Made by a program: the position numbers and the translations under genes. Shown here one piece after another: positions 4,377-56,063 of a DNA stretch of 64,000 bases. The stretch's first letter is position 1. Every line of letters starts with the position of its first letter. This stretch comes from Pseudomonas phage PhiPA3, in the sequence record HQ630627.1, one strand, 5' to 3'. A model generated the notes under the pieces. It ran no database searches. It saw only the letters and a program-made list of their open reading frames with translations, and was not told where the DNA came from.

Positions 4377-5477
4377 TTATTTTTTCAGATCAGCGATTGT
4401 CTCAGCAATCTGTTTGTTGAATTGTTTCACGAATTCAGAACTACCCATGTTGCGGTAGACTTGGTCGTTAGAGCTATCGATCAGATCAATCATAACTTCA
4501 TTCAACTGCGAACGATCATAGCCATGGTTCTGTTGCATCATGCGAATCAGGTAACGAATGTAGGGTAAGCGGGCCATGGTAATAGCCCATTCGTTCTGAT
4601 ACGTCACTGGTTCACGTGGTAGCTTGATGACATCAAACAGATCGTTCTTAACGATCATCGGGGTAATAGCAGCCAACCCTTCGAGTTCAATCCCTTTCAG
4701 AATAGCTTCTTTGTTAATGTATTCAGCAAGCGTATCCAGACGGGGAGACATGTCGGTTAAGTAGAAGGGATGCGATACCGGGAACTTCGGGTTATCGATA
4801 TGCTGGGAAGCGCGATCCAGTCTATTAAAGAAGGCGATATCCAGATAACTCTCGATCATGTTGGGTAGTACAATACTCCCTACAAACCTGTAAGCGTTCT
4901 CTTTTTGATCTACGCCGTTTTGTATTTGCCATCTGAGCCAATAACGATACTGCACCAACAGCATGGGAATATTAACTGAGATCACGCCGTAGGCTCGCCC
5001 TTGGGTGGTGTTGTTCATGATCGGGAGGTTAACGTCTGTCCGTGTGTGGTACAGATACTTAACTGGCTGGAGATCCCGCCATGTTTTCCCCAGTCCTTTG
5101 GTCTCGAATCGTTCTAGGCTCGCCATTGCGACTTCTTCAGACTTGGGTCCTAGGGTGATTCCCCCTTCGTGGATTTTCCCTTTGTGAATGGAAGATGTCA
5201 TACCAAAGACACGGTACACGCCCTTAGCGTAATCTTCAACTTTCTTTGCCCAAGCGGCGTCATCAATCTTCCAATCGATCACAAACTGCTGACACAGTAA
5301 AGCAAACATATTGGAAGAGTCCACGTATTTCGGAGCTTTCCGATAATACGTTTGCACATCTTTAATAAGAGTTTTGTAGGTCCGACGAATATAGACAATT
5401 CGAGGATCCAAAGCTTGGCCTAAGCGACGCGTGGGTGCGTCTCTGAAGAGCATGTACATGTTAGTCGCCCATTGCAA
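4377..5477 (-). CDS. hypothetical protein (366 aa)
   Basis: long minus-strand ORF, divergent promoter region upstream. Confidence 0.55.
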   Translation of the reverse strand: MQWATNMYMLFRDAPTRRLGQALDPRIVYIRRTYKTLIKDVQTYYRKAPKYVDSSNMFALLCQQFVIDWKIDDAAWAKKVEDYAKGVYRVFGMTSSIHKGKIHEGGITLGPKSEEVAMASLERFETKGLGKTWRDLQPVKYLYHTRTDVNLPIMNNTTQGRAYGVISVNIPMLLVQYRYWLRWQIQNGVDQKENAYRFVGSIVLPNMIESYLDIAFFNRLDRASQHIDNPKFPVSHPFYLTDMSPRLDTLAEYINKEAILKGIELEGLAAITPMIVKNDLFDVIKLPREPVTYQNEWAITMARLPYIRYLIRMMQQNHGYDRSQLNEVMIDLIDSSNDQVYRNMGSSEFVKQFNKQIAETIADLKK

Positions 5478-5485
5478 AAGATTTC

Positions 5486-5505
5486 AAATCTATATCATGG
5501 TTTTG
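5486..5505 (+). promoter_or_regulatory. candidate early-type promoter motif AAATCTATATCATGGTTTTG
   Basis: near-identical copy at 21695-21714, related copies at 7486 and 16665; 36 nt upstream of the 5541 start. Confidence 0.4.
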
Positions 5506-5540
5506 ATAAGTCACCCCTTACATCTAAATAGGAAACTATA

Positions 5541-7274
5541 ATGCATTCCAATTATACCCCCACCCGTAAAAGCGTTACAGGTATTACCATCGGTAATATG
5601 CAAAACATCGCCTTACTCCATATGCCGAACATGTATAACCAGGTTTCTGAGCTGTTCCTTTATAGTACCTATTTCCATGGGATGGACCTCACCCGCTGTA
5701 ACCGCGATGCAGTCGAGTGGTTCATGACTCACCTCGCTGATGCTGTCCAACACGATTTCGATAATCTTGATGGCGAACAACTGGACGATCGAATCAAGGC
5801 ACGCATCGCCGGTTTGCAGGACGTAATCCAGCAAGCCTTAACTGGTGAAGGCGTGCTGTGTGAACAGCCAGGCGCCATCAAAGTGGAAGTTAATGGTATT
5901 CATCGCTTTATCCAGATGAACCATGATTTCAACCGGGTGAAGATGGCTGTACAAAAACTGATTACAGGTGCCATTGGCGTAATCCGCCCAGGCGTCACCA
6001 CCCATCAAGTCCGTGATCTCGAAAAGGTCCTTAGCAAAGAGTGGACTGTAATGACCAACAGTGCCCGTAAGGAGGCTTTGGTTAATTACATTGCTTTGCT
6101 GGCGAATTGCCATAACAACTCGCAGACTAACCAACTTCTACCGGAAGCTAAAGTCCCCCAACGTATTTTCCTCAACCCCCGTAACAGGAGTACTATCATG
6201 CAACACGATGATGAAAACATTCGTTCTGGTACTAGCGATAGCTTCGAAGATACCAACAACGAAAGAACAGGCCTTCCCCGTCTTAACGAGCGTCTACGGA
6301 GCAATCGAGCCACCAAAGTCGATATCACGGATGCTCCGGATCTGACTGATGCTCGTTACAGCGACAACGGTGATATTCATCTGAAGAAGATCTTCCTGAA
6401 CATCTCCGCTACCGCTATTGCTAAGGCAGGCCTACTCATCGAGAATTTCACTGACGACAACTTCGATCGCATCGTTAATCACGCTGCCTCCTTGTTTGGT
6501 CCTTGTTTGGATACCAACAGCGAAGAACTCATTAACAATCAGCTGTCTATCCTGGCCACCTTCGTCAGAGACGTTTACGATGAGCAGACTAAAAGCACTG
6601 GAGAACCCCGTGAGCTGTCTCTGATCGAGCGCAAATTCAGTGGGAACATTCCGCTGGATATCGACAAAGGTTACCTGTCCATCCAACGTAATGACACTGA
6701 AAGCTCCGATCAAATCGGTTTCGTCTACAATGACGAAAACCGTGAGTTCACGAAGGCATCTTCGGAAGAAGAACAGCGCATGCGTGACGAGATCGTAGCT
6801 ATTTGTTCTGGTCCGAGTATCGACGCTTTGCACCACAAAGCTGCTCTGGATTACCAGCGTGCTATTCAAGAAGCCAATGACGTCCGTGCGGAGGGTTCTA
6901 ATACCTCGCATATGAAGTACAAGCAGTTGATGCAGAAAGCTCGTGCACATTACCTGCAAACGGTTGAGATGATCGACAAAGGCGTCATGGTGGAGAACGA
7001 TGGTCTACTGGCCACCAACGTCATTAATGCCCGTACTCGCCTGGCAGCTTATCGCTGCAATGGTAATGAACTGGTTAAACTGCATCGTGAGGTGGTGGAA
7101 CGTCGAGATGCGCTTCAAGCGGCTGAAGAATGCCGACTGACCCAGGAACGTGGAGAGCTGATCCGCGACATCATGGAAAAGGTCATCAGCCGAATCATGG
7201 ATGCACAGCGCCAGGGCGAACTCACCGAAATTGTTCGCAACCTGATCGATGAGTTGAACGTCCACGCGAAATAA
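5541..7274 (+). CDS. hypothetical protein (577 aa)
   Basis: long ORF with AGGAAA RBS. Confidence 0.55.
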   Translation: MHSNYTPTRKSVTGITIGNMQNIALLHMPNMYNQVSELFLYSTYFHGMDLTRCNRDAVEWFMTHLADAVQHDFDNLDGEQLDDRIKARIAGLQDVIQQALTGEGVLCEQPGAIKVEVNGIHRFIQMNHDFNRVKMAVQKLITGAIGVIRPGVTTHQVRDLEKVLSKEWTVMTNSARKEALVNYIALLANCHNNSQTNQLLPEAKVPQRIFLNPRNRSTIMQHDDENIRSGTSDSFEDTNNERTGLPRLNERLRSNRATKVDITDAPDLTDARYSDNGDIHLKKIFLNISATAIAKAGLLIENFTDDNFDRIVNHAASLFGPCLDTNSEELINNQLSILATFVRDVYDEQTKSTGEPRELSLIERKFSGNIPLDIDKGYLSIQRNDTESSDQIGFVYNDENREFTKASSEEEQRMRDEIVAICSGPSIDALHHKAALDYQRAIQEANDVRAEGSNTSHMKYKQLMQKARAHYLQTVEMIDKGVMVENDGLLATNVINARTRLAAYRCNGNELVKLHREVVERRDALQAAEECRLTQERGELIRDIMEKVISRIMDAQRQGELTEIVRNLIDELNVHAK

Positions 7275-7570: not shown

Positions 7571-9454
7571 ATGTCTATTCGTGATAGCGAAAACAACAAC
7601 GGCCAACAGCAGCAGACCGCGCAAACTGCCGCCCCCGCCCCGCAAATGCAACAGACCCAACAAGGACCCAAAGTGCAAACTCAAACTCTCCAAGGCGGTG
7701 CTGGTAACCTGAACAGCATCTTCCAGCGTTCCGGCCGTACCGACGGTGGTGACGCTCGTGCCAGCGAAGCGCTGGCTGTGTTCAACAAACTGAAAGAAGA
7801 GGCAATCGCTCAGCAAGATCTGCATGACGATTTCCTGGTCTTCCGTTTCGACCGCGATCAGAACCGCGTAGGTTACTCCGCTCTGCTGGTTGTTAAGCGT
7901 GCCGCTATCAACGGTCAACAAGTCATCGTTACCCGCCCGCTGGTAATGCCGAACGATCAGATCACTCTGCCGACCAAGAAACTGACCATCCAAAACGGGA
8001 TGCATCAGGAAACCATCGAAGCGGAAGCTGACGTACAAGACGTGTTCACCACCCAGTACTGGAACCGCATCTGCGACTCCATTCGTCAGCAAACTGGCAA
8101 GCACGACGCCATGGTCATCAACGCTGGTCCGACCGTCATCCCCGCAGATTTCGATCTGAAAGATGAACTGGTTCTGAAGCAGCTGCTGATCAAATCCGTC
8201 AACCTGTGCGATGACATGCTGGCCAAGCGTTCCGGCGAACAGCCCTTCTCCGTTGCCATGCTCAAAGGCACCGACGAGACCCTGGCTGCCCGTCTGAACT
8301 TCACTGGTAAGCCGATGCATGACAGTCTGGGCTATCCGATCCGTTCGGACATCCTGGTATCCCTGAACCGCGTCAAGAAGCCGGGCCAGCAGGAGAACGA
8401 ATTCTACGAAGCCGAAGATAAGCTGAACCAAGTCAGCTGCTTCGTCAACCTGGAATACACTCCTCAGCCGCAACAAGCCATCTACGGTGCTCCGCAGCAA
8501 ACCCAACAGCTGCCTCCGCTCACTCCGGCCATCGTCATCACCGACGTACGTCAGGCTGAGTGGCTGAAAGCAAACACCATGGAACTGTACCTGTTCGCTC
8601 TGAGCAACGCATTCCGTGTAACTGCTAACCAGTCCTGGGCACGTAGCCTGCTGCCGCAACTGGGTAAGGTCAAGGACATGCGCGATATCGGTGCAATCGG
8701 CTACCTGAGCCGTCTTGCAGCGCGCGTTGAAACCAAGACCGAAACCTTCACCGACCAGAACTTCGCCGAACTTCTGTACAACATGGTTCGTCCGTCTCCG
8801 GTGTTCATGTCCGACCTGAACCGCTTCGGCGACAACGCTGCGATCGAGAACGTCTTCATCGACGCCCTCGGTGGTGTAAACCAGCAGCGCGCTGTAGCGG
8901 CTATCATTGCCGGTGTGAACAACCTGATTGGTGGTGGCTTCGAGAAGTTCTTCGATCACAACACCATGCCGATCATCCAGCCGTACGGCACCGACATCCA
9001 GCTGGGCTACTACCTGGATGGCGAGGGTGAGAAGCAAGACCGTCGTGACCTGGACGTCCTGGGCGCTCTGAACGCCAGCGACGGCAACATCCAGGAATGG
9101 ATGAGCTGGTACGGCACTCAGTGCAACGTCGCAGTACATCCGGAACTGCGTGCTCGCCAGTCGAAGAACTTCGACCGTCAGTACCTGGGTAACTCCGTCA
9201 CCTACACCACCCGTGCACATCGTGGTATCTGGAACCCGAAATTCATCGAGGCTCTGGACAAAGCGATCGCGTCGGTTGGCCTGACCGTAGCCATGGACAA
9301 CGTGGCTCAGGTGTTCGGTGCTCAGCGCTTCAGCGGCAACCTGGCTATCGCCGACTACGCCGTTACTGGTACCGCTCAGGTATCCAGCGGCCTGGTTTCC
9401 AACGGTGGCTACAACCCGCAGTTCGGTGTAGGTCAAGGCTCGGGCTTCTATTAA
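7571..9454 (+). CDS. very highly expressed 627-aa protein, proposed chimallin-like nuclear shell protein
   Basis: Strongly biased codon usage (GGT/CGT/CTG/AAC-rich) and AAAGGAAAAAGACATG RBS. Q-rich disordered N-terminus. Sits immediately upstream of the RNAP beta' N-terminal gene, as phiKZ gp54 sits upstream of gp55. The antisense 660-aa ORF is an artefact. Confidence 0.4.
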   Translation: MSIRDSENNNGQQQQTAQTAAPAPQMQQTQQGPKVQTQTLQGGAGNLNSIFQRSGRTDGGDARASEALAVFNKLKEEAIAQQDLHDDFLVFRFDRDQNRVGYSALLVVKRAAINGQQVIVTRPLVMPNDQITLPTKKLTIQNGMHQETIEAEADVQDVFTTQYWNRICDSIRQQTGKHDAMVINAGPTVIPADFDLKDELVLKQLLIKSVNLCDDMLAKRSGEQPFSVAMLKGTDETLAARLNFTGKPMHDSLGYPIRSDILVSLNRVKKPGQQENEFYEAEDKLNQVSCFVNLEYTPQPQQAIYGAPQQTQQLPPLTPAIVITDVRQAEWLKANTMELYLFALSNAFRVTANQSWARSLLPQLGKVKDMRDIGAIGYLSRLAARVETKTETFTDQNFAELLYNMVRPSPVFMSDLNRFGDNAAIENVFIDALGGVNQQRAVAAIIAGVNNLIGGGFEKFFDHNTMPIIQPYGTDIQLGYYLDGEGEKQDRRDLDVLGALNASDGNIQEWMSWYGTQCNVAVHPELRARQSKNFDRQYLGNSVTYTTRAHRGIWNPKFIEALDKAIASVGLTVAMDNVAQVFGAQRFSGNLAIADYAVTGTAQVSSGLVSNGGYNPQFGVGQGSGFY

Positions 9455-21810: not shown

Positions 21811-23013
21811 ATGTACGAAGAACACAACCTCCGGCGTGCAGTACGAGAGATCCATGCAAAACTTCTCGGTCATGCTGCACTGGATCCGTATTATGGAACT
21901 ACCTCCGCTGCTCGTGGAGCTATGTTCTTGTCTCACATTGGTCAGGCGCCCGTTGTGGAAGGGAACGAGCCCCGCCGTGTGATGACCGGTATGGAAATGC
22001 GTTATGCCGAATACACGTTCGACGTTCGTCTACCTACGGACTGCACGATTCTGCACAAAGTCCGTAAGTACCCCACTGGGCAAGGGTATGGGGCAATCCA
22101 ACATAACCCTGTAACAACTCTGATCTACGAGAACTATTACGACGAATACAAGACCATCGGCGTACTGCATGTTCCTGAGTACATGAGTTTTCACCAGGAC
22201 TTTGGTTATGAGCTAGTCAAGAACAAAGAAGTATGGGAATCTCTGCAACCTGACCAGATGTTCGCCAAAGATACCGTTATCGCTCAGTCCTCGACTGTAA
22301 AGTCTAACGGATTGTACGGCATGGGTGTAAACGCCAACGTTGCGTTCATGTCTGTGCCTGGTACCATTGAGGACGGTTTTGTCGTCTCCGATGAGTTCTT
22401 GGAACGTATGTCCCCACGTACTTACACCACCGCAGTTTGTGGTGCGGGTAAGAAGGCATTCTTCCTGAACATGTATGGCGATGACAAGATCTACAAACCG
22501 TTCCCGGATATTGGAGAAAAGATTCGGGAAGATGGCGTGATCTTTGCGGTACGCGATTTGGATGATGACTTGGCTCCGGCCGAAATGACTCCGCGCGCCC
22601 TGCGTACGCTGGACCGTACTTTCGATCGCGCTGTTATTGGTGATCCGGGTGCGACTGTAAAAGACATCAAAGTATATTGGGACGAACGTCAGAATCCCAG
22701 TTTCACGCCAAGCGGTATGGATGGTCAACTGCGCAAGTATTACGACGCGTTGTGCACCTATTACCGGGAGATCATCAAGATCTACCGTGGGTTGCTGGCA
22801 CGGCGTAAAGACAAGCTGCGGATCAGCGAAGAGTTCAACCAGCTCCTCGTTGAAGCCATGATCTACCTACCGCAAGCTGAGGGCCAGCGTAAGCTGACTC
22901 GGATGTATCGTCTGGAACAACTGGATGAATGGCGTGTGGAACTCACCTACGAATCCATTAAAGTTCCTGGTGGTGCATATAAGCTCACAGATTTTCACGG
23001 TGGTTCGCTATGA
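21811..23013 (+). CDS. RNA polymerase beta subunit C-terminal part, exon 1
   Basis: ORF ends ...GGAYKLTDFHGG, corresponding to the beta GDKxxxRHGNKG motif truncated at HG; the stop codon lies inside the intron. Confidence 0.75.
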   Translation: MYEEHNLRRAVREIHAKLLGHAALDPYYGTTSAARGAMFLSHIGQAPVVEGNEPRRVMTGMEMRYAEYTFDVRLPTDCTILHKVRKYPTGQGYGAIQHNPVTTLIYENYYDEYKTIGVLHVPEYMSFHQDFGYELVKNKEVWESLQPDQMFAKDTVIAQSSTVKSNGLYGMGVNANVAFMSVPGTIEDGFVVSDEFLERMSPRTYTTAVCGAGKKAFFLNMYGDDKIYKPFPDIGEKIREDGVIFAVRDLDDDLAPAEMTPRALRTLDRTFDRAVIGDPGATVKDIKVYWDERQNPSFTPSGMDGQLRKYYDALCTYYREIIKIYRGLLARRKDKLRISEEFNQLLVEAMIYLPQAEGQRKLTRMYRLEQLDEWRVELTYESIKVPGGAYKLTDFHGGSL

Positions 23014-23445
23014 ATGTCAATAAACATTGATTAAAGTATACTTATTTGTCCGTGGTATGTTGAACAAGTTGCCGTAGGATAAATAAGTGAAGATTTTAAT
23101 GGATGGATATTCAAAGAAATGTAAGAGCCTGCTTAATCAGCGATGGTTAAGTAATCGTCATCTAATTGCGGGAAACCCCTGAGAGCCTTATCTACTAACT
23201 CAACCCAGCGATGGAGTTGAGGGCCAGTCTAATCCACTGGGTACAGTAAAAATGATAAGGATTGGGCAATCCGCAGCGAAGCTTCTCTTTGAGAAGAACG
23301 TTCAACGACTAACCCCTAACCAGGGTGTAGAACTTAAGCGAGTTCGAAATGGTGACCCTCTCACGCAGAGGAAGATATAGTCTGTTCCCATGTGAAAGCA
23401 TGGGCGGGTGTCATAGCACACCGGGATAGCGTAGCGAACTATCTG
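23002..23445 (+). ncRNA. group I self-splicing intron (ORF-less, IA-like) in the RNAP beta gene
   Basis: P AATTGCGGGAAA (23163-74), Q AATCCGCAGC (23267-76), R GTTCAACGACTA (23299-310), S AAGATATAGTCT (23372-83), P9 hairpin cccatg/catggg. Boundaries approximate. Confidence 0.75.
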
Positions 23446-24447
23446 GACAAAAAGAAAGGAGTAGTCTGTGAGGTGAGACCGAAAGCTGATATGCCAGTGG
23501 ACGAATTTGGTAACGTCGTAGACGCTATCATCTTCGGTGGTTCCACCATGCGTCGTTCTAACTATGGTCGGATCTACGAACACGGTTTCGGAGCAGCATC
23601 CCGAGACCTGGCGCAACGTCTACGTGTTGAAGCTGGCCTTCCCCGTCATGGCGTAGTACCGGAGCAAGATCTGAATCGGGTTTGCAGCAATCGAGAGTGG
23701 GTTACTTACGCTTTCGCTGAACTGCAAGAGTTCTATTACATCATCGCGCCAACCATGCACGAGATATTGAGAGAACACCCAAGTCCAGCTGAGTACGTAA
23801 AAACCGTTCTTCGTGATGGTTTCTCGTACATCTACAGCCCGGTAGACGATCCGGTAGACCTGATGAGTTCACTGAACTGCATCATGAACAGTCGTTTCTG
23901 CCCGAACCATACGCGAGTTACCTATCGCGGTCAAGATGGGAAGATGGTCACCACCAAGGACAAAGTTCTGGTTGGTCCGCTGTACATGATGTTGCTGGAG
24001 AAGATCGGTGAAGACTGGTCTGCCGTAGCGTCGGTAAAAGTTCAGCAATTCGGCCTGCCGTCTAAACTGAACAACTCTGACCGTTCCAGCACTCCGGGTC
24101 GGGAATCCGCCATCCGTTCGTTCGGTGAATCGGAAACTCGTTCGTATAACTGCACTGTTGGCCCAGAAGCTACGGTGGAGCTGTTGGACCAGACTAACAA
24201 CCCGAGAGCGCACCTTGCTGTGATCAACTCTATTCTGACTGCTGACAAGCCCAGTAACATTGAGCGTGCAGTGGACAGGACCAAGGTACCGTTCGGTAGT
24301 AGTCGACCGGTGGATCTGCTGGAGCACCTGCTGGAATGTCGCGGTCTTAAGTTTGAATACGCAACCACTGACGGCGTACAGCCTGTTCACACAGCTGTAC
24401 CAATCCGTGCCCAACAAAAGGTTAAGAGTGAGGCAATCGAGGAGTGA
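23446..24447 (+). CDS. RNA polymerase beta subunit C-terminal part, exon 2
   Basis: DKKKGVVCEVRPKADMPVDEFGNVVD aligns with [24 protein letters not shown]; downstream GPLYMMLLEK and RSFGESETRSY match conserved beta regions. Confidence 0.75.
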   Translation, partial: DKKKGVVCEVRPKADMPVDEFGNVVDAIIFGGSTMRRSNYGRIYEHGFGAASRDLAQRLRVEAGLPRHGVVPEQDLNRVCSNREWVTYAFAELQEFYYIIAPTMHEILREHPSPAEYVKTVLRDGFSYIYSPVDDPVDLMSSLNCIMNSRFCPNHTRVTYRGQDGKMVTTKDKVLVGPLYMMLLEKIGEDWSAVASVKVQQFGLPSKLNNSDRSSTPGRESAIRSFGESETRSYNCTVGPEATVELLDQTNNPRAHLAVINSILTADKPSNIERAVDRTKVPFGSSRPVDLLEHLLECRGLKFEYATTDGVQPVHTAVPIRAQQKVKSEAIEE

Positions 24448-32264: not shown

Positions 32265-33119
32265 TTGATCATGCAAGAAATCCTAGACAGTGTCCTCACG
32301 CCACTGATTGCAGATGAGCGTAAAGAGGCCATTCTGGACTGTGTTGCATCGTTTGAAGAACTCGACTTTTCTCCAGCTCTAGACGAACTGCACACCGTCT
32401 GCATGATTGCTGACGACATGGCTGATACATCTATTCTACTAAGCCGGATCGATGACGTAATCCGAGTGGCACACGACCAGATCCTAAGTGGTTTTGAAAT
32501 ACGTGTATCAGACGAAGCTACTCAAGTCGAGCGTCAAGCTATTCTGAAAACGGTCACTGGTATTGCGTACTACATATTACCAGACGATATTCAAGGTATC
32601 TTGCAAAGCGAATACGATCACGAAGAAACATTAGCACATCTCGTGCCTTTGTTTGAGAATGTATCCGTCGACGATATCCTTCCTTTGATCACCTATGTTG
32701 CTCCCTCGTTTATCGAAGCATTGACTAAACATGTCAATGAGGTCATGCAAGTGCGGGGCGTTGCTCAAGAATACGACCCCCCAGTAGAACGTATCAAATT
32801 GATTAACCAACTGTTGCGTACCTTCGGTCATGACAAGTTCCAATTGATGTTAGAACTTTCCAGTTCGGGAATGCGTGTGGGTGGGGCAATCGATCAGTTA
32901 ATGTCAGACAGCATGAATGCATTGGATTCACGCAATGCCAAAGAAGCCCTGTATGAAATTGTAGGGCTGGTATTCTTCTCAAACGTAACCCCTGAGATGA
33001 TCTGGAAGACAGCTAACATGTTGACAGATGAATATACCGAGAATCCCATGGAGCGGGCAATTATGCTCGATGAACTCCGCGTTATCCAACGTAGGATGCC
33101 TATCAATGAAACTGCGTGA
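32265..33119 (+). CDS. hypothetical protein (284 aa)
   Basis: ORF following the divergent intergenic region. Confidence 0.45.
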   Translation: MIMQEILDSVLTPLIADERKEAILDCVASFEELDFSPALDELHTVCMIADDMADTSILLSRIDDVIRVAHDQILSGFEIRVSDEATQVERQAILKTVTGIAYYILPDDIQGILQSEYDHEETLAHLVPLFENVSVDDILPLITYVAPSFIEALTKHVNEVMQVRGVAQEYDPPVERIKLINQLLRTFGHDKFQLMLELSSSGMRVGGAIDQLMSDSMNALDSRNAKEALYEIVGLVFFSNVTPEMIWKTANMLTDEYTENPMERAIMLDELRVIQRRMPINETA

Positions 33120-34446
33120 TTACTTCTTACTGGGTTTGAATAAGGGACTTGGCAAGAAACGCGTATGGATGAACGTCTTATTCAACATCGTCTATAATGC
33201 TAACGAAGGTCCTGAATACACGCTCAAGCCTTATTTCAAAGATGATCAGATGTACTTCTACAAGGAAGGCGATTCGAATGACGTTATCGAGTACATCGAA
33301 GATTATATCCCAAACCGAGCCCCATTGCATTTTCGGGATGAATTCATTTTACAACCAGGGGAGATCGCCAATTACAAAGGCACCGAACCCCTACGCACCA
33401 CCTACGGCAATGTCTTTGCCAACCACCTAATCCTGGTTGAAGCCTTCGGTGATCTGTTCCCCTTCCAAGCGGGTAAGTTCGATCCGGCTAAACTGGAAGA
33501 CCAAATCCTCGAACGCATGATTGATGACCGTGAAGATGGTGATGTCACTACCATGGCTGGTGACGGAAAACTGTATGTTTGGCAGTACCTGAAATTCGCT
33601 GATGCGTGCCTAGCTATCCCCGGCTACGCCGATAGCCTCGTCACATCCGTTACCAAGAAGTCTCTGACCAGCTCTCCAGAGCGTGACGCTGTGCGTGAGA
33701 AATGGGTAAAGGATAACGCACACCGACTACATGATCCTGCGGCTATTGCAGAGCTGGGCGTCCTGATGGGTAAAGTCGATGATGAATACCTAGAAGGCGA
33801 TGAAGCCAACGAGTTCTACAAATCGAAGAAGAAACTGGCCGGCGCTCGCCGTAAAGTACACTACTTCTTTGGTGGTGAATCCCCGTTCTCCGATGGCACT
33901 ACTGTTACGTTCATCAAGAAGTCATTGGAAGAAGGTATTGATACCGACTTCATGCCGGTGATGAACAACTCGCTGCGCTTCGGTTCTTACAACCGAGGTG
34001 CACAGACAGCGATGGGTGGTGAATCCACGAAGACTATTTACCGGATGGTAGGTACTGTTCGAATCATCGAACCCGACTGCAAAACCTGGATCGGTATTCC
34101 CACAATGGTGGATGACTTCAACGCCAAAACGTTGATTGGTTATTCCTACGTTGATAAGGGACGATCTATCCTTATCGAGAAAGATGACCTGGAATCTCTC
34201 AAAGGTCGCATCATTGACATCCGTGGTCCGATGACTTGTAAGTCTGGACGGGGTGAAGGGGATGCATTGGGTAAAGGTAAGAACATCTGTGCCGTGTGTG
34301 CAGGTAAAGCACTTGCCGAAAACCCGAACGGTATCCCCGCAGCCGCAGCAGGAGTCGGTGGTAGGTTCTTGATGATCTTTATGTCAAAGATGCACAGCTC
34401 TGTTCTAAGAACCGTGCACTGGGACATGAGACGCCGTATTACCTAG
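33106..34446 (+). CDS. hypothetical protein (446 aa)
   Basis: ATG with AGGA RBS overlapping the upstream stop. Confidence 0.45.
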   Translation: MKLRDYFLLGLNKGLGKKRVWMNVLFNIVYNANEGPEYTLKPYFKDDQMYFYKEGDSNDVIEYIEDYIPNRAPLHFRDEFILQPGEIANYKGTEPLRTTYGNVFANHLILVEAFGDLFPFQAGKFDPAKLEDQILERMIDDREDGDVTTMAGDGKLYVWQYLKFADACLAIPGYADSLVTSVTKKSLTSSPERDAVREKWVKDNAHRLHDPAAIAELGVLMGKVDDEYLEGDEANEFYKSKKKLAGARRKVHYFFGGESPFSDGTTVTFIKKSLEEGIDTDFMPVMNNSLRFGSYNRGAQTAMGGESTKTIYRMVGTVRIIEPDCKTWIGIPTMVDDFNAKTLIGYSYVDKGRSILIEKDDLESLKGRIIDIRGPMTCKSGRGEGDALGKGKNICAVCAGKALAENPNGIPAAAAGVGGRFLMIFMSKMHSSVLRTVHWDMRRRIT

Positions 34447-34548: not shown

Positions 34549-35742
34549 ATGCATTATCTAGATATCCCCGCAGTTAACGGTGTCCTTACGATTAGCCACG
34601 TAGCAACAGGTTCGTTTTATATGGTGTGCGCGACGAATATACGCGACGCCGCTATAAATGCTAATGGCCAACTACGCTTGGGTACTTATCAAAGTCCAAA
34701 ACTCCAAGAACTTTATCTACAATCTGACGAACTCGATTTTACGTTTATCGAAACGGCAGATAAGGAAGAGTCACGGAGTATCCGTCAAAAAGTAATGGCG
34801 GAAAACTATGGCAATGATAAGCTACTAAATCAGCAGGACTGGCCTAAGCTTACCGGAGTGTTTAAACTTGAACACTCAGCTACTGGTAAATTGATTATTG
34901 GTACCACTCAGGATATTATAAAACAGCACAGCTATCAAGCCACACTACTTCGAACTGGAAAGCATAAGTGTCCTGAGTTCCAATCTCTCTATGACCCGGA
35001 AGTTGGTACAAGTGCGTTTAAGTTCTCTTTCTCCATTTGCACTGATAAAGAAGAAGCTAAATCGGTTGCACAGGAATGGATCAAAGATGCTGTTAAACGG
35101 GGCGTTTATCTAACTGGTTCTACCGTTAAACCAGCCAAGGTTGAAGAAGTCGGTAAATTGTGCGGGGTTTATCGGATAACCTTCCCGGCTACTGGACATT
35201 TCTATATCGGTAGTAGCGGTCATGTCCGTCAGCGACTAGCTCACCACAAGAGTCGACTTAAGGCTGGGCTACACGCCAGCAGTCAAGTGCAGGAGTGCTA
35301 CAATAACAATGGTGGCGAGTATACTACCGACACCATCTATACGGATACCCGTGATGAGGCTTACGCACTGGAACAGAAGTTAATCGACTTACATCAAGTC
35401 GATCCATTGTTTTTGAACTTTGGTAGTGACGTGAAGTCGGTCGTCAAGGATCTTTGGGCTAATCCGGAATATCGTGATCGCATTATCAATGGTTCAGTTA
35501 AATCGGTTAGAGATCCAGAACGGCGAAAAGCTTACGGCGAAAAGATGAAAGCTTACTGGGCTACGCCAGAGGCTAAAGCTAAGCGCATGGGTGGGGGAAA
35601 TCCATTTGCCCGGAAAGTGAGTGTCTTTGGAATCGTATACGGCTCTATTATGGATGCGGTTCGTGCTAAAGCTTTGCCAGATGCTAAACTTCGCCAACGT
35701 TTAAAAGACCCTGAAGACAAAGAAGTCTTCTATGTTAGCTGA
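34549..35742 (+). CDS. free-standing GIY-YIG homing endonuclease with three tandem GIY-YIG modules
   Basis: The third module is canonical (GVYRITF...HFYIGSS...R...H...YNNNGGE). Two degenerate upstream modules (GVLTIS...SFYMV; GVFKLE...KLIIGTT) sit with a repeated basic C-terminal region. GC is lower and codon usage atypical. Confidence 0.6.
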   Translation: MHYLDIPAVNGVLTISHVATGSFYMVCATNIRDAAINANGQLRLGTYQSPKLQELYLQSDELDFTFIETADKEESRSIRQKVMAENYGNDKLLNQQDWPKLTGVFKLEHSATGKLIIGTTQDIIKQHSYQATLLRTGKHKCPEFQSLYDPEVGTSAFKFSFSICTDKEEAKSVAQEWIKDAVKRGVYLTGSTVKPAKVEEVGKLCGVYRITFPATGHFYIGSSGHVRQRLAHHKSRLKAGLHASSQVQECYNNNGGEYTTDTIYTDTRDEAYALEQKLIDLHQVDPLFLNFGSDVKSVVKDLWANPEYRDRIINGSVKSVRDPERRKAYGEKMKAYWATPEAKAKRMGGGNPFARKVSVFGIVYGSIMDAVRAKALPDAKLRQRLKDPEDKEVFYVS

Positions 35743-41936: not shown

Positions 41937-42305
41937 TTAGTAACCCTCATTCAACAGATCGGATAATGCTCTAGCTTGAGAAATATCAGTGGAAGCAAAT
42001 ACGTCAGAAAGATAATAATCATGATCTTTTGCATTCTGACGTAATTCATTCATTAGTTGTTTATTGGATACAGCCCAAATTCTCCATAAGTCTTTATAGT
42101 CCTCATACTTAGGATTATACCCATCTAATGGAGGTTTACCTTTCCCTGCTTTCCAATTATTGGAATGTATTCTGTATCCTTTACAGTCTAATTGCCAAGC
42201 TTCCTCAATCGTTCGTCCATCCGGTAGCCGAGCAAACAGGGCAGAGAATCGTTTGTCGCCAACGGAGGAACATTCGTATCCTCCGCGACGCTTCCACCGA
42301 TACAT
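41937..42305 (-). CDS. hypothetical protein (122 aa)
   Basis: start overlaps the stop of DNA polymerase exon 2 (TAATG); the 3' half is AT-rich. Confidence 0.4.
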   Translation of the reverse strand: MYRWKRRGGYECSSVGDKRFSALFARLPDGRTIEEAWQLDCKGYRIHSNNWKAGKGKPPLDGYNPKYEDYKDLWRIWAVSNKQLMNELRQNAKDHDYYLSDVFASTDISQARALSDLLNEGY

Positions 42306-42545
42306 TACTTTGGGGGTTGAGTTTCCTTGTGTTTTAGGTAAGCTGCCAGCATGTTATCCAGTTTGGCACCTTTCATGATCTTCTGTGCAATTTCGATACC
42401 GTTGACTCGACCCCCTGTCAGGTTCACACCCACTTCACGACGATCATGTTCAGAGATGTCTTTCATTGCCGAGAACTCCATGACGGTAGTCTCACGAGCA
42501 ATGTTCAGAATCTGACTCACGTTCGGATACGTACTTACAATCCAT
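42305..42545 (-). CDS. DNA polymerase (exonuclease part), exon 2
   Basis: short open frame continuing after the intron's 3' end; the upstream boundary is approximate. Confidence 0.4.
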
Positions 42546-42885
42546 ACCTTCGATAGAGTTCGTTATGCTCTACCCGCGTTTACACGCTGCTCCAGGCTTT
42601 CCCTGGATGTGGAGACTATATCACCATCCTTCTCTTTCGAGGATCGGATGCTTCCTATTTCCACCCACTTGGATGTACTCCCTTACGGGATAGTCGTTGA
42701 ACGTTCTTCTCAGAGAGAAGCTTCGCTGCGGATTGCCCAATACATGTGTCTTTTACCATACCCAGTGAGTTAGACTGGCCATCTAGTATATCGCTATCTA
42801 GACTTGGTGCACATGTCTCTAAGGATTTCCCCGTCAATTAAAGAAGTTTGCATCAAGTGTTCCAACTTGATGGGACTAATATTTA
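42546..42885 (-). ncRNA. group I self-splicing intron (ORF-less) in the DNA polymerase gene, paralogous to the intron at 23002-23445
   Basis: On the minus strand: P TTAATTGACGGGGAAA (42829-40), Q AATCCGCAGC (42725-34), R GTTCAACGACTA (42691-702), S GATATAGTCTCC (42611-24). Shares a ~60-nt near-identical Q-R core with the first intron. Confidence 0.7.
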
Positions 42886-44709
42886 ATCCAGATCAGCCAC
42901 GTGCGTAAACAAAAGTGTGTTGTAGTCGGGTAAGTCTTTGACACACTTCAGTCCGTTGGGTCCAGCCATGTACGAAGGCAGGGTAACGATCCAGGAATCG
43001 TGGCCAACAACATAGCTATCAAGATCATGAACCATCTGATCAGAGCTTGAACCAATTACACAGGGTTCAGGCCGCTTGAGATACCAGAAGTGCATGTCGT
43101 CGCACAGACGTTTCGGGTTAGAACTAAAGTTCTTGTAGTCCGAAGATTTCGAGAACAGAGTAATAGACGAAGCCAGGTCATTAATCTTTTCATCGAGTTG
43201 TTCCAGTCGAATGGAGTCGATGATGTTGTAAAGACCGTACCGGACTTTGTGGTTCTTCTGCATCTCAATGTGCCATTCGATACCTCCCAAGTAGTCAGTT
43301 TCAGCGAACTTCAGTTTACCAAAGTTCAGGCGCATCCCCACACCAAACCCAGGATGTACGTTGACACCCCAGACCAGCGAATCAACTTCTTCCCAGTGTT
43401 CTTCTCGTTCGACCTTTTCCTCACGGCGGTACTCGACTTGAACCCTCGGATCTTCCGGATCAATACCTTCTTGTAGCAGCTTCTCCTGAGCTGCGGTATA
43501 AACAGGGACATCGTTGTACGTGACGTCTACCTTATCCTTGCTCGGATCGTTGACCGACCAATATGGGTGGGCACCACTACGTTCAGCGATGGCTTTACCC
43601 ATCTTCTTCATCCAGCTGTTGAATTCCTCTTCAGTCTGAACAGTTTCCTGTTCATCCATGGAGAGTTCTTTCTTCAGGATGGCATCGAGGGCATAACTGG
43701 ATTCTTTACCTTTGGCCAATCGAGTTACACGATACGTGGCCATGGAGTCAATGCACTGGAACGACGCAGGTGCAGTAATCCAATGCCATTGGTCTTCTGG
43801 ACCTTTGGACTTGGTTACACCCGATGCCGTAGTGGTCATCGCTTGGTCTTGACGGTAATGGAAATACCGATAGTTCGGAGGAACTTGAGGATCACTGAAT
43901 ACGTTCTTCGGGTCAATGCCGTAGTTTTCCAGTGTGGTCAAGATTCGACTCATGTCGAAGTCGATATTCCAGAACGCGAAGAAGTCAGGCTTCCACTTGT
44001 GCAAACGACGCATGCAGTTGATGATGATATCAGCAGGCGAATTTACTACCTCAATTTCAATATTGAGATTACGTGCTTTTTTCAGAGTCACCAATTCTGG
44101 AATGCGTTCTAATTCGGCGAAGGTTTCGGCAACTGGGTCATCCAGATCTTTCACCCAATGCTTCAGATATGCCAGATACACGTTTTCCTTGTGTGTAACC
44201 GACATGCAGATAATCTGTCCCTCGTTCTCTTCTTCGTACACGTTGGTCTCGATGTCGCCACCGGCTACCGTGTTACGGGAAATAAGTTCCGGGTATTGCT
44301 CCCGGTAGTCGTTTTTGAGACAGCAGACTGAGCTTACGTCCGAACCGTACAGATAAGGGCTACGGCTCAATTGGCGCATACGTGGGTTAGGACCCATTGA
44401 GTAATCGCCTAACAACTTAGCGATCATACGTGGCATCTCCAGTTGAGTACAGGTGTACTTCTGGAGGTTACGTTCAAATTCGTAATCTTTCTTTTCTTTA
44501 TGATTTTGTCTTCCCTTCTGTGTAATCCAGAAGGGACGTTTGTAGTCTTCAACGACCCGAATACGTGGGATACGACGTTTGTCTTTAAGGTGAATGATTT
44601 CTTTGACTACGTGTGCATCATGCCTACGGCCAGTTTGGTCAGTCACATAAGTGATGTGTTTGGCTTCAATACCAACAACATCTTCTTTTGTAAATTGTAG
44701 GTCGGACAT
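42883..44709 (-). CDS. family-B DNA polymerase N-terminal part with 3'-5' exonuclease domain, exon 1
   Basis: Exo I GDIETNV, Exo II FWNIDFD and Exo III YALDAILKK at T4 gp43-like spacing. Confidence 0.55.
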   Translation of the reverse strand: MSDLQFTKEDVVGIEAKHITYVTDQTGRRHDAHVVKEIIHLKDKRRIPRIRVVEDYKRPFWITQKGRQNHKEKKDYEFERNLQKYTCTQLEMPRMIAKLLGDYSMGPNPRMRQLSRSPYLYGSDVSSVCCLKNDYREQYPELISRNTVAGGDIETNVYEEENEGQIICMSVTHKENVYLAYLKHWVKDLDDPVAETFAELERIPELVTLKKARNLNIEIEVVNSPADIIINCMRRLHKWKPDFFAFWNIDFDMSRILTTLENYGIDPKNVFSDPQVPPNYRYFHYRQDQAMTTTASGVTKSKGPEDQWHWITAPASFQCIDSMATYRVTRLAKGKESSYALDAILKKELSMDEQETVQTEEEFNSWMKKMGKAIAERSGAHPYWSVNDPSKDKVDVTYNDVPVYTAAQEKLLQEGIDPEDPRVQVEYRREEKVEREEHWEEVDSLVWGVNVHPGFGVGMRLNFGKLKFAETDYLGGIEWHIEMQKNHKVRYGLYNIIDSIRLEQLDEKINDLASSITLFSKSSDYKNFSSNPKRLCDDMHFWYLKRPEPCVIGSSSDQMVHDLDSYVVGHDSWIVTLPSYMAGPNGLKCVKDLPDYNTLLFTHVADLD

Positions 44710-54746: not shown

Positions 54747-56063
54747 ATGGTTGACTCTATTGTTAACCAAACCCAACCTGAGCATCTCGACGGGGTAGAA
54801 CCCGTCGATTTGCCCGTCTCGCCCGAAGACCAAACTAAGTTGGAGTCAATTGACATTAGCTTAGAGGCATTTCATGCAGAATTGGATAGACTGGAGAAAC
54901 TAGATCACTTTATCCACAGTGATACGGGTAAACAGTCTCCAGAGATGCTGCGTTATGCCGTGGAGAAGTTCGGATTTGCGGACGCGATCTCGACGGAAGA
55001 CATTACCGATTCCGCCAAGCAGGTATGGGACCGCACTAAGTACAATTTAAAGCGATTCCAGAGCGATTTGTACGGTTACGCTAAGGTTCTCCAGAGTGGG
55101 AACGATCGCATCGTAGAGCGCATTTCTATGCTTTATGACACGGCCTCCAATATCAAGGATAAGCCGTATCAAGAAGAGATTGAAATTCGTAAGAACGCTA
55201 AGTTCGGTATTGACGGTAAGTTTGAACCGCATGACATTCGTCCAGTGATGATTCAAACGCAGAACCTTCTGGACTTCTATGATAAAGTCCTATTGCCGTA
55301 CATGGCCATGATCGATAAGATGATCAACAATTTATCGTTCGATGAAAAATGGACTGAAGACGCTACGATCGACTTTAGTATCTTCTACGCTAAGCGTTGG
55401 CTCAAGGGGGCACTCCCGGTTGAGAATGATCAACGCTTTCGTGTGAATGCTTCAGTGTTTCGGTCAGACTTGACTCAAGGCAATCGTTCTATTTACTTCT
55501 CGGGCCCTACTGAGGCGGAAACGGACAAGATCCAAGACTGGGCTTTTATGGTGAATACAATTCGGGATTTCCGATTTAAGTATTACACTGTACCGGAACA
55601 AAAGCCGGTTAACCCGGAAGACAACAAGATCGAAGTCCCTGCATCAAATCAGATCCGTCAACGTTTAGGTGTATTGATGGGCCTGGCCAAACGTCTACAA
55701 GCTCGGAAGGGTTATGACCAGAAGCTTTCTGCCGCATTACGTAAGCTGGAACAATCAGCTGATCGGGTACGCAGTAAAGCCGGTCAAATAAGGACCATGG
55801 ATAATAATGACCCTAACAGCCCAACTAATCGGCCAACCGAGGCAAAGAACGAAGCTCGCCCTGCCGTATCGAATGTAATCCATGATTTGACGATGATCCT
55901 GAACAACGTGACACGTATGATCACCGATTACAATAATGCCCTGGCTGGGATGATTCGCTTAATTAGTGGATTGGCATTCATTGCTGACCTGGAACTCAAG
56001 GCCTTCCAAGCACCTTTGCGAAAGCCTACTGAGGAAGAACAAAAGCGTCTCGCTCCAAGATGA
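54747..56063 (+). CDS. internal-head/inner-body-like paralog 1
   Basis: AAGGAGGG RBS; SLEAFHAELDRLEKL module start resembles LExYxxLLK of its paralogs. Confidence 0.45.
   Translation: MVDSIVNQTQPEHLDGVEPVDLPVSPEDQTKLESIDISLEAFHAELDRLEKLDHFIHSDTGKQSPEMLRYAVEKFGFADAISTEDITDSAKQVWDRTKYNLKRFQSDLYGYAKVLQSGNDRIVERISMLYDTASNIKDKPYQEEIEIRKNAKFGIDGKFEPHDIRPVMIQTQNLLDFYDKVLLPYMAMIDKMINNLSFDEKWTEDATIDFSIFYAKRWLKGALPVENDQRFRVNASVFRSDLTQGNRSIYFSGPTEAETDKIQDWAFMVNTIRDFRFKYYTVPEQKPVNPEDNKIEVPASNQIRQRLGVLMGLAKRLQARKGYDQKLSAALRKLEQSADRVRSKAGQIRTMDNNDPNSPTNRPTEAKNEARPAVSNVIHDLTMILNNVTRMITDYNNALAGMIRLISGLAFIADLELKAFQAPLRKPTEEEQKRLAPR

Follow-up and report, generated by a model that had tools for sequence, protein, structure and literature searches.

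A predicted group I intron beside the putative motif A aspartate in the split DNA polymerase gene gp85 of Pseudomonas phage PhiPA3

The 64,000-nucleotide (nt) stretch of Pseudomonas phage PhiPA3 DNA analysed here (HQ630627.1; hereafter the window) corresponds to nt 32001-96000 of NC_028999.1. On its minus strand lies gp85, which encodes the N-terminal fragment of a family B DNA polymerase (PolB), and the reading frame of this gene is interrupted by what is apparently a real, unannotated and otherwise conventional phage group I intron (complement(74542..74885) in NC_028999.1; hereafter the pol intron). A sequence-only reading of the window had placed such an intron between a 608-amino-acid (aa) open reading frame (ORF; 42883-44709) and an open frame downstream on the same strand, and both frames are indeed present, the second ending at position 42305. 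The 608-aa product matches AEH03509.1/YP_009217165.1 ("DNA polymerase" / "Uncharacterized protein 085") with 100% identity, and the closest phages to PhiPA3 in the annotated phage collection are Pawinskivirus-like, at about 80% identity.

In an Rfam scan, the window matched the group I intron family RF00028 twice. One match covers 42590-42895 on the minus strand (71.7 bits, E = 3.2e-16, gathering score 50, model positions 1-253 of 253), and the other, also over the full model, is the RNA polymerase intron at 23111-23404 on the plus strand (79.2 bits); beyond these two, the scan to E <= 0.05 found no RNA-family match in the window. The boundaries of the pol intron were set by alignment and tblastn against the PA1C orthologue, which is uninterrupted, encodes 647 aa and reads ...FSHVADLDIVSTYPNVSQ... 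across the corresponding region. PA1C residues 1-570 reach window position 42886, and residues 571-646 start at 42541 in the same frame. With a slash marking each splice site here and below, the minus-strand junctions are ...GCT GAT CTG GAT / TAAATATTAGTCCC ... GAAGGTATGG / ATT GTA AGT ACG TAT CCG, so that exon 1 ends with GAT (42886) and exon 2 starts with ATT (42541). Excision of the intervening 344 nt (42885..42542) joins the exons in frame as ...HVADLD/IVSTYPN... and gives a protein of 686 aa, from which the predicted junction-spanning tryptic peptide is DLPDYNTLLFTHVADLDIVSTYPNVSQILNIAR. The first three intron nucleotides, UAA, are the stop codon of the annotated 608-aa product; the 5' splice site is preceded by U (42886), and the final intron base is G42542 (omega G). 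The span originally proposed, 42546-42885, therefore had the 5' splice site right and stopped 4 nt before the 3' splice site.

The RNA of this segment can be laid out as the helices P1 to P9.2 (Table 1). P1 consists of seven base pairs (bp) closed by a 3-nt loop, and in it the splice-site U42886 pairs with G42876 as a U·G. P7.1 (UCCC-GUAA-GGGA), P7.2 (CAUCC-AAG-UGGGUG) and P8 all covary across relatives, as do helices 13-14 of the 3' domain by pair counts, and P9 is a hairpin in all relatives with a different sequence in each lineage. The minimum free energy (MFE) fold of the single sequence has -98.9 kcal/mol, with z = -2.6. Since both P7.1 and P7.2 are present, the intron was assigned to the IA type; placement in subgroup IA2 is plausible, in a scheme that a recent survey calls outdated, with IA2 itself heterogeneous (PMC11878797).

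Covariation was evaluated on an alignment stated as ten related introns, namely the pol introns of PhiPA3 and HPP-Temi, four metagenomic pol introns from the same site, three introns from one neighbouring site, and the RNA polymerase introns of PhiPA3 and phiKZ. From this alignment, RNAalifold recovered P2-P6, P7.1, P7.2, P8, P9.1 and P9.2. With P7 added as a pseudoknot, standard pairs filled 92.5% of the cells, a figure inflated by a consensus built from the same sequences, versus 36-45% when the partners were slid by 1-3 columns; these slid controls are nevertheless clear, and so are the compensatory double changes, which were found in 46 of the 63 pairs. None of 500 shuffles reached any of the five measures. 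P7 was 100% paired and invariant save for one compensatory exchange, U-A to C-G, in two relatives. Taken together, the RF00028 match, the U·G at the 5' splice site, the terminal G, the restored frame and the covariation bear out the earlier proposal of a group I intron in this region.

To name the interrupted gene a DNA polymerase exonuclease gene, as had been done from the sequence, was fair. Exon 1 contains the motifs Exo I (GGDIETN; consensus DxE), Exo II (FWNIDFD; consensus Nx2-3FD) and Exo III (YGLYNIIDS; consensus Yx3D), and their residues D152/E154, N248/F251/D252 and Y494/D498 do not vary among 17 homologues. The spliced protein matched phrog_3011 ("DNA polymerase") with 794 bits and, weakly, phrog_262, the general PolB family, over its N-terminal third. 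When an AlphaFold model was compared with the PDB by Foldseek, all 49 of the 49 matches at E <= 0.001 were PolBs (Pol epsilon at E = 5.5e-7, RB69, T4 and Deep Vent among them); the model was moderate, with a predicted local distance difference test (pLDDT) score of 65.7, and was not used to place motif A. By hhalign, FWNID-FD of Exo II paired with GWNIEGFD of T4, weakly (E = 0.044).

The junction lies where the protein is most strongly conserved, in a block with H603, A605-P614 (I609-P614 included) and V616-Q618 invariant in the 17 homologues. When the C-terminal 146 residues were aligned locally with T4 gp43, the best alignment paired HVADLDIVSTYPNVSQILNIARETT with motif A (consensus DxxS(L)YP(S/N)), setting D608-IVSTYPN against D408-LTSLYPS (score 50 versus 28.2±4.9 for shuffles, with 1 of 300 shuffles equalling it). 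Judged from this alignment, D608 would be the counterpart of T4 gp43 D408, the catalytic aspartate of motif A, and the intron would lie directly after the D608 codon. Exon 2 has no start codon at the junction, its first in-frame start being a GTG seven codons downstream. gp85 ends 78 residues past motif A; motifs B and C and the thumb lie outside it and are expected on the separate gp47 protein, whose gene is located 40 kb away on the opposite strand and has been named putative DNA polymerase (DNAP) (PMC11077065). That gp47 holds the C-terminal half fits the split subunit DNA polymerase reported for phiKZ-like phages (PMC5105663).

Table 1. Positions of the gp85 exons, the pol intron and its helices, and of the other features discussed (window coordinates; the last four rows are in the coordinates of the loci named)
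Feature	Position	Strand	Evidence or detail
Exon 1 of PolB N-terminal fragment (gp85), 608 codons ending ...THVADLD	42886..44709	-	ORF translation; tblastn with PA1C aa 1-570; phrog_3011
Group I intron without endonuclease ORF, 344 nt	42542..42885	-	RF00028 71.7 bits; PA1C boundaries; MFE z -2.6; covariation
Exon 2, 78 codons plus stop, starting IVSTYPNVSQ	42305..42541	-	Translation; tblastn with PA1C aa 571-646, 81.6% identity
P1	42873..42889	-	GGAU/UAA (42889-42883) pairs UUAGUCC (42879-42873); read from sequence
P2 hairpin, CAUCAAGU / ACUUGAUG	42851..42872	-	MFE fold; 6/6 counted pairs with compensatory changes
P3 5' strand (42846-42841), then P4-P5-P6 domain	42701..42846	-	Rfam alignment; RNAalifold; pair counts for helices 2-7
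P5 extension, two hairpins (P5a/b/c)	42816-42742	-	Rfam alignment; RNAalifold; pair counts
P6	42726-42701	-	Rfam alignment; RNAalifold; pair counts
Catalytic core	42613..42697	-	P7 5' strand ACGACUA 42697-42691; P7 3' strand UAGUCU 42618-42613
P7.1	42690-42679	-	
P7.2	42675-42662	-	
P3 3' strand	42656-42651	-	
P8	42650-42625	-	
3' domain	42542..42607	-	P9 42607-42591 (GAAA-type loop); P9.1 42587-42576; tail to omega G; MFE fold
P9.2	42572-42554	-	Conserved UAACGAA loop; MFE fold
RNA polymerase intron, non-virion beta gene gp65-66, 450 nt, splits FHGG/KG, ORF-less	23005..23454	+	RF00028 79.2 bits; PA1C boundaries
gp47, C-terminal polymerase part of split PolB, 717 aa	130..2283	+	phrog_2927 DNA polymerase 1014 bits; phrog_262 positions 575-709 of 856
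Free-standing homing-endonuclease homologue, 397 aa	34549-35742	+	phrog_314 368 bits; Pfam GIY-YIG residues 205-283
Further intron in conserved pol block, L037	4651-6062		
Further intron in conserved pol block, L039	4810-5200		
Further intron in conserved pol block, L038	~4783-5409		
Further intron in conserved pol block, L043	~4564-5961		

We hold with high confidence that 42885..42542 is a self-splicing IA-type group I intron interrupting gp85, and one likely derived from an HNH-bearing mobile intron. The gp85 pre-mRNA would fold as the P1-P9.2 ribozyme, and an exogenous guanosine held in P7 would attack after U42886, which forms the U·G with the guide. The freed exon 1 would then attack after the terminal G42542, and ligation of ...GCU GAU CUG GAU to AUU GUA AGU... 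would give the 686-aa protein (...HVADLD-IVSTYPN...). As UAA opens the intron, unspliced RNA would terminate there and yield the 608-aa product found in the databases. In our reasoning the exons must be joined, because the ribozyme is intact, the split lies inside an invariant catalytic motif and exon 2 lacks a start signal, and further because PhiPA3 is viable and gp85 belongs to the conserved chimallivirus replication module.

Several points weigh against this reading. Splicing of the pol intron is inferred here, not shown, and in an ONT-cappable-seq study of phiKZ the predicted introns, including the related gp72 intron, gave no spliced reads (PMC10914365), so that splicing of chimallivirus introns is not to be assumed. 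P10 is a weak pairing of about 3 bp, and whether the endonuclease was gained or lost is judged by parsimony across few genomes. As for the host gene, sequence and profile searches of Pfam, NCBIfam and PDB with exon 1 or the spliced protein returned no polymerase, the AlphaFold pLDDT is below 50 at residues 555-636, around the junction, and the motif A assignment draws on a short local alignment and a fold-level match of the N-terminal part.

The insertion site of the pol intron, L-D/I (HVADLD/IV), is referred to as A1, and two neighbouring sites as A2 (A-D/L; HVAD/LDIV) and B (W-I/V; DDW-I/VTLP). The pol intron of HPP-Temi (PP968062.1) is inserted at the identical position (D/I in HVADLD/IVSTYP) and shares its P1 guide and its P6 with that of PhiPA3, to which it is 82.6% identical in the core and 80% overall. 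It is 1722 nt long and differs substantially in one respect only, a 444-aa HNH/NUMOD1 ORF in the P1 loop; the end of this ORF overlaps P1'/P2. The PhiPA3 intron has 344 nt and a 3-nt loop. In the HPP-Temi record the locus bears only the labels DNA polymerase / HNH endonuclease / DNA polymerase, and the paper on this phage mentions neither intron nor HNH. An intein or a free-standing endonuclease was considered for the split HPP-Temi gene and dropped, since the HNH ORF separates the two strands of P1 and the ribozyme around it is complete.

Further A1-site introns in metagenomic chimalliviruses were revealed by homologues whose products stop at ...ADLD. Two of them (L008, L009) contain HNH ORFs of about 450 aa, and two are ORF-less (L007, 433 nt; L040, 440 nt). 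PA1C and 26 of 26 IMG/VR loci, the latter used as intron-minus controls only, represent alleles without the intron. Full-length identity among the three A1-site HNH proteins is 54-57%, a divergence similar to that of the host polymerases, which argues that the endonuclease is old at A1 and that the ORF-less forms are most simply deletions. The PhiPA3 pol intron had rightly been described as ORF-less: it has no endonuclease ORF, and its only internal ORF (60 aa, TTG start) had no match in the NCBIfam scan, Pfam and PHROGs not being scanned. A tblastn search with the HPP-Temi HNH protein found no significant homologue anywhere in the window (best E at least 0.77); one match at that level consists of 11 codons at 42888-42856, the place where the HPP-Temi HNH ORF overlaps P1'/P2.

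The exon flanks differ between alleles as well. Intron-plus alleles have in common the synonymous junction states TGGAT/ATTGT.AGTAC, whereas PA1C reads CTTGAC/ATCGTTTCGAC and is without U at -1. In HPP-Temi and PA1C, whose genes are otherwise about 85-97% identical, the junction codons are GAT TTG GAT/ATT GTC AGT and GAC CTT GAC/ATC GTT TCG, respectively; over 60 nt on each side, synonymous changes cluster at the intron site, in the manner of a co-conversion tract left when an intron is acquired. Identity between these two is 87% in the junction-flanking windows versus 90-97% in most others, a pattern that selection on P1/P10 would produce equally. The exon-flank pattern would fit either co-conversion or the pairing requirement of P1/P10.

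The distribution among PhiPA3 and its relatives is that of a classical homing cycle of invasion, fixation and endonuclease loss. As far as sequence comparison can tell, the ORF-less pol intron most likely derives from an HNH-bearing form by loss of the endonuclease, and the earlier suggestion of homing followed by such a loss gains support from the HNH-bearing orthologues at the same site (HPP-Temi, L008 and L009). A mobile intron with a P1-loop HNH protein of about 445 aa, which orthologues still carry, would have lost its endonuclease in PhiPA3. The ORF-less intron would now spread only passively, by recombination or with an endonuclease supplied by a co-infecting relative.

The second RF00028 match is the published intron of gp65-66 (NC_028999.1 nt 55005-55454; PMC10643120; also PMC11077065), and the boundaries that we derived independently, 23005-23454, equal the published ones. 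It occupies the same site as the phiKZ gp71/gp72/gp73 intron, and the phiKZ copy carries the HNH gene gp72 in the same P1 loop. In gp65-66, about 115 nt lie in this loop, between GGT/TCGC and the guide GAGCC and beyond the approximately 294 nt of the Rfam match; they could be what is left of an endonuclease gene now lost. The gp65-66 and phiKZ gp72 introns share with the pol intron P2, the P5 extension, P7.1/P7.2, P9.1/P9.2 and the UAACGAA loop, whereas the gp65-66 intron differs from it in host gene and guide (GAGCC pairing GGU/UC).

The two PhiPA3 introns had been called paralogous on the strength of a common P/Q/R/S core that includes a near-identical stretch of some 60 nt. This stretch is real and present in both introns, with a length of 51 nt: it occurs exactly twice in the window (23261-23311, plus strand; 42691-42741, minus strand), with 50 of 51 positions identical, and there were no matches in 100 shuffles. 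By segment, identity between the introns is 97% in P6-P7, 73% in the P5 extension and 45-60% elsewhere, or 61% overall. The paralogy is therefore right, and the relationship is modular, the close likeness being limited to the central core and the rest looking mosaic. From P9 to its end, the gp65-66 intron is 70-75% identical to the A2-site pol introns (L037, L039 and L038), the corresponding values being 47% for the PhiPA3 pol intron and 48% for the phiKZ intron at the same RNA polymerase site, and it looks mosaic. With so modular a relationship, recombination between introns or guide-directed transposition could have played a part.

The conserved pol block contains more introns than those at A1. 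At A2, 6 nt upstream of A1, members of the same intron family are found with a 336-aa HNH (L037), without an ORF (L039) and in a third example (L038); at site B, about 100 nt upstream, L043 has an intron with a 366-aa HNH_3 ORF, and a dozen truncated products end at this site. The HNH ORF of L043 seems to be situated deeper in the ribozyme than the P1 loop. In L038, positions 4783-4875, which follow the exon 1 stop, read in frame ...MDIVNYGGEFSM..., in faint resemblance to how exon 2 begins (LDIVSTYP...EFSMM), and the tblastn match to exon 1 continued across them; this could be a degenerate duplicated exon fragment from imprecise homing, or chance.

The PolB motif A block of chimalliviruses might on these grounds be a multi-site intron hotspot, with at least three sites in about 110 nt, whose intron family moves between sites and genes by guide-directed reverse splicing and intron-intron recombination. 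All three sites follow GGAU, A1 and A2 share the GUCC guide, and the gp65-66 intron joins a pol-type P5-P7 core to an A2-type 3' domain, which argues for module exchange. We advance this proposal tentatively and regard it as unlikely; if true, introns in nucleus-forming phages spread not only by endonuclease homing.

A related explanation, to which we give a smaller chance and which we consider improbable, is that the pol intron arrived without an ORF by guide-directed reverse splicing from a relative such as the RNA polymerase intron, and never had an endonuclease in the PhiPA3 lineage. The 51-nt stretch and the 97% identity over P6-P7 would agree with such an origin, and so would the 3-nt P1 loop of PhiPA3, which retains no endonuclease remnant; guide-directed insertion also predicts what is seen at the sites, where the A1 and A2 introns, those of other phages included, share the GGAU/GUCC P1 pairing and the 5' exon at site B likewise ends in GGAU. 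The nearest relative of the pol intron, however, is the HNH-bearing intron at the same site in HPP-Temi (80% overall, versus 61% for the RNA polymerase intron), and the guide of the RNA polymerase intron is a different one. HNH-bearing orthologues exist in three divergent phages, and the exon flanks resemble co-conversion, which is typical of homing at the DNA level. We thus keep to descent from an HNH-bearing intron at A1.

Might the intron have decayed and ceased to splice, leaving a split gene that makes the 608-aa protein and a small exon 2 peptide, or none, as separate subunits? Natural fragmentation of PolB and RNA polymerase genes is known in chimalliviruses (PMC7598289; PMC5105663), the gp47 half being a case in the present window, the databases hold the 608-aa product only, and one transcriptome study found no spliced reads for phiKZ introns (PMC10914365). 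All core helices are nevertheless intact and the invariant core nucleotides retained, and the split would cut motif A one residue past the catalytic aspartate. Exon 2, moreover, has neither a start codon nor a ribosome-binding context at the junction; its codons 1-7 (IVSTYPN) are invariant in all homologues, and it remains 81.6% identical to PA1C with no frameshift. We consider a non-splicing relic very unlikely and retain the view that gp85 is probably read from spliced RNA.

The sequence-only reading had also pointed to a triple GIY-YIG endonuclease at 34.5 kb as the source acting in trans on the ORF-less pol intron. Homologous to homing endonucleases (phrog_314, Pfam GIY-YIG), the 34549-35742 ORF has three GIY-YIG-like modules, of which only the third is canonical and the two N-terminal ones are degenerate, and a weakly detected I-TevI-like DNA-binding tail. 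It sits between the RNA polymerase beta gene (33028-34446, directly abutting) and a virion protein gene. Free-standing GIY-YIG genes do occur shortly downstream of pol in some relatives, in L037 (6481-7284, besides the intron HNH) and, faintly, in L007 (8276-8665). In collaborative homing as it is known, the endonuclease is adjacent to the intron. This ORF is 6.8 kb away from the pol intron, beside another gene, and 11 kb from the RNA polymerase intron; the endonucleases inside the intron family are all HNH, and nothing ties GIY-YIG specificity to the pol site. These results give no support to the proposed role, to which we assign a probability slightly lower even than that of a decayed intron. 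Finally, that two independent genes flank a repeated non-coding element, the circumstance that had been named as undoing the intron, is hardly credible: the core sequence is present twice in the window, but the full-length Rfam match, the exact frame restoration, the U·G and omega G, the uninterrupted orthologues and the covariation all contradict it.

No report of an intron in PhiPA3 gp85 was found in the literature, though the original genome paper (PMID 21163841) may mention one. In proteomic work gp85 has appeared as a "hypothetical protein", and it goes under that name in one of the papers in which gp65-66 was corrected (PMC10643120); the public protein collection holds the 608-aa product only, with no 686-aa protein and no product of the exon 2 ORF from its GTG or next ATG start. 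Setting the gp85 product right at the predicted 686 aa, motif A included, would affect mass-spectrometry searches, structure prediction, knock-down and CRISPR designs, and core-gene alignments. PhiPA3 is a main laboratory model for nucleus-forming jumbo phages and for the idea of intron endonucleases as weapons between co-infecting phages. The series formed by the A1 site with and without HNH, the two neighbouring sites and the mosaic cores would allow the homing cycle to be studied where transcription is physically apart from translation. Elsewhere in the window, a 627-aa ORF (7571-9454, plus strand) belongs to the nuclear shell protein family (chimallin; phrog_4795, 754 bits), which fits a nucleus-forming phage.

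In the same phage, a group I intron with an HNH-family endonuclease, gp210, interrupts the virion RNA polymerase gene beside its catalytic aspartates (Birkholz et al. 2024, Science; PMC11620839). This intron, which lies outside the window and is likened here by description, resembles the pol intron in being of group I and in residing in an essential polymerase gene. It differs in that gp210 is an active nicking HNH enzyme that harms phiKZ in co-infection, whereas the pol intron, having no endonuclease, cannot act in this way alone.

The T4 td, nrdB and sunY introns, likewise group I introns from a phage, have the IA architecture, including P7.1/P7.2 and P9.1/P9.2. The pol intron shares with these IA2 introns P7.1/P7.2 between P7 and P3' as well as the P9.1/P9.2 extensions, and differs from them in its P5 extension. 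Among the best 60 of 274 blastn records for the pol intron there was no T4-type record; core similarity was found to introns of Bacillus, Staphylococcus and Brochothrix phages. Conserved polymerase motifs also harbour self-splicing introns, usually accompanied by HNH nicking endonucleases, in SPO1/SP82 (I-HmuI), Bastille (I-BasI), LUZ24 and Pf-WMP3. The polymerases interrupted there are mostly of family A or unrelated PolBs. Unlike these, the PhiPA3 intron has as its host a divergent, split PhiKZ-type PolB, and its site is placed at what would be the motif A aspartate.

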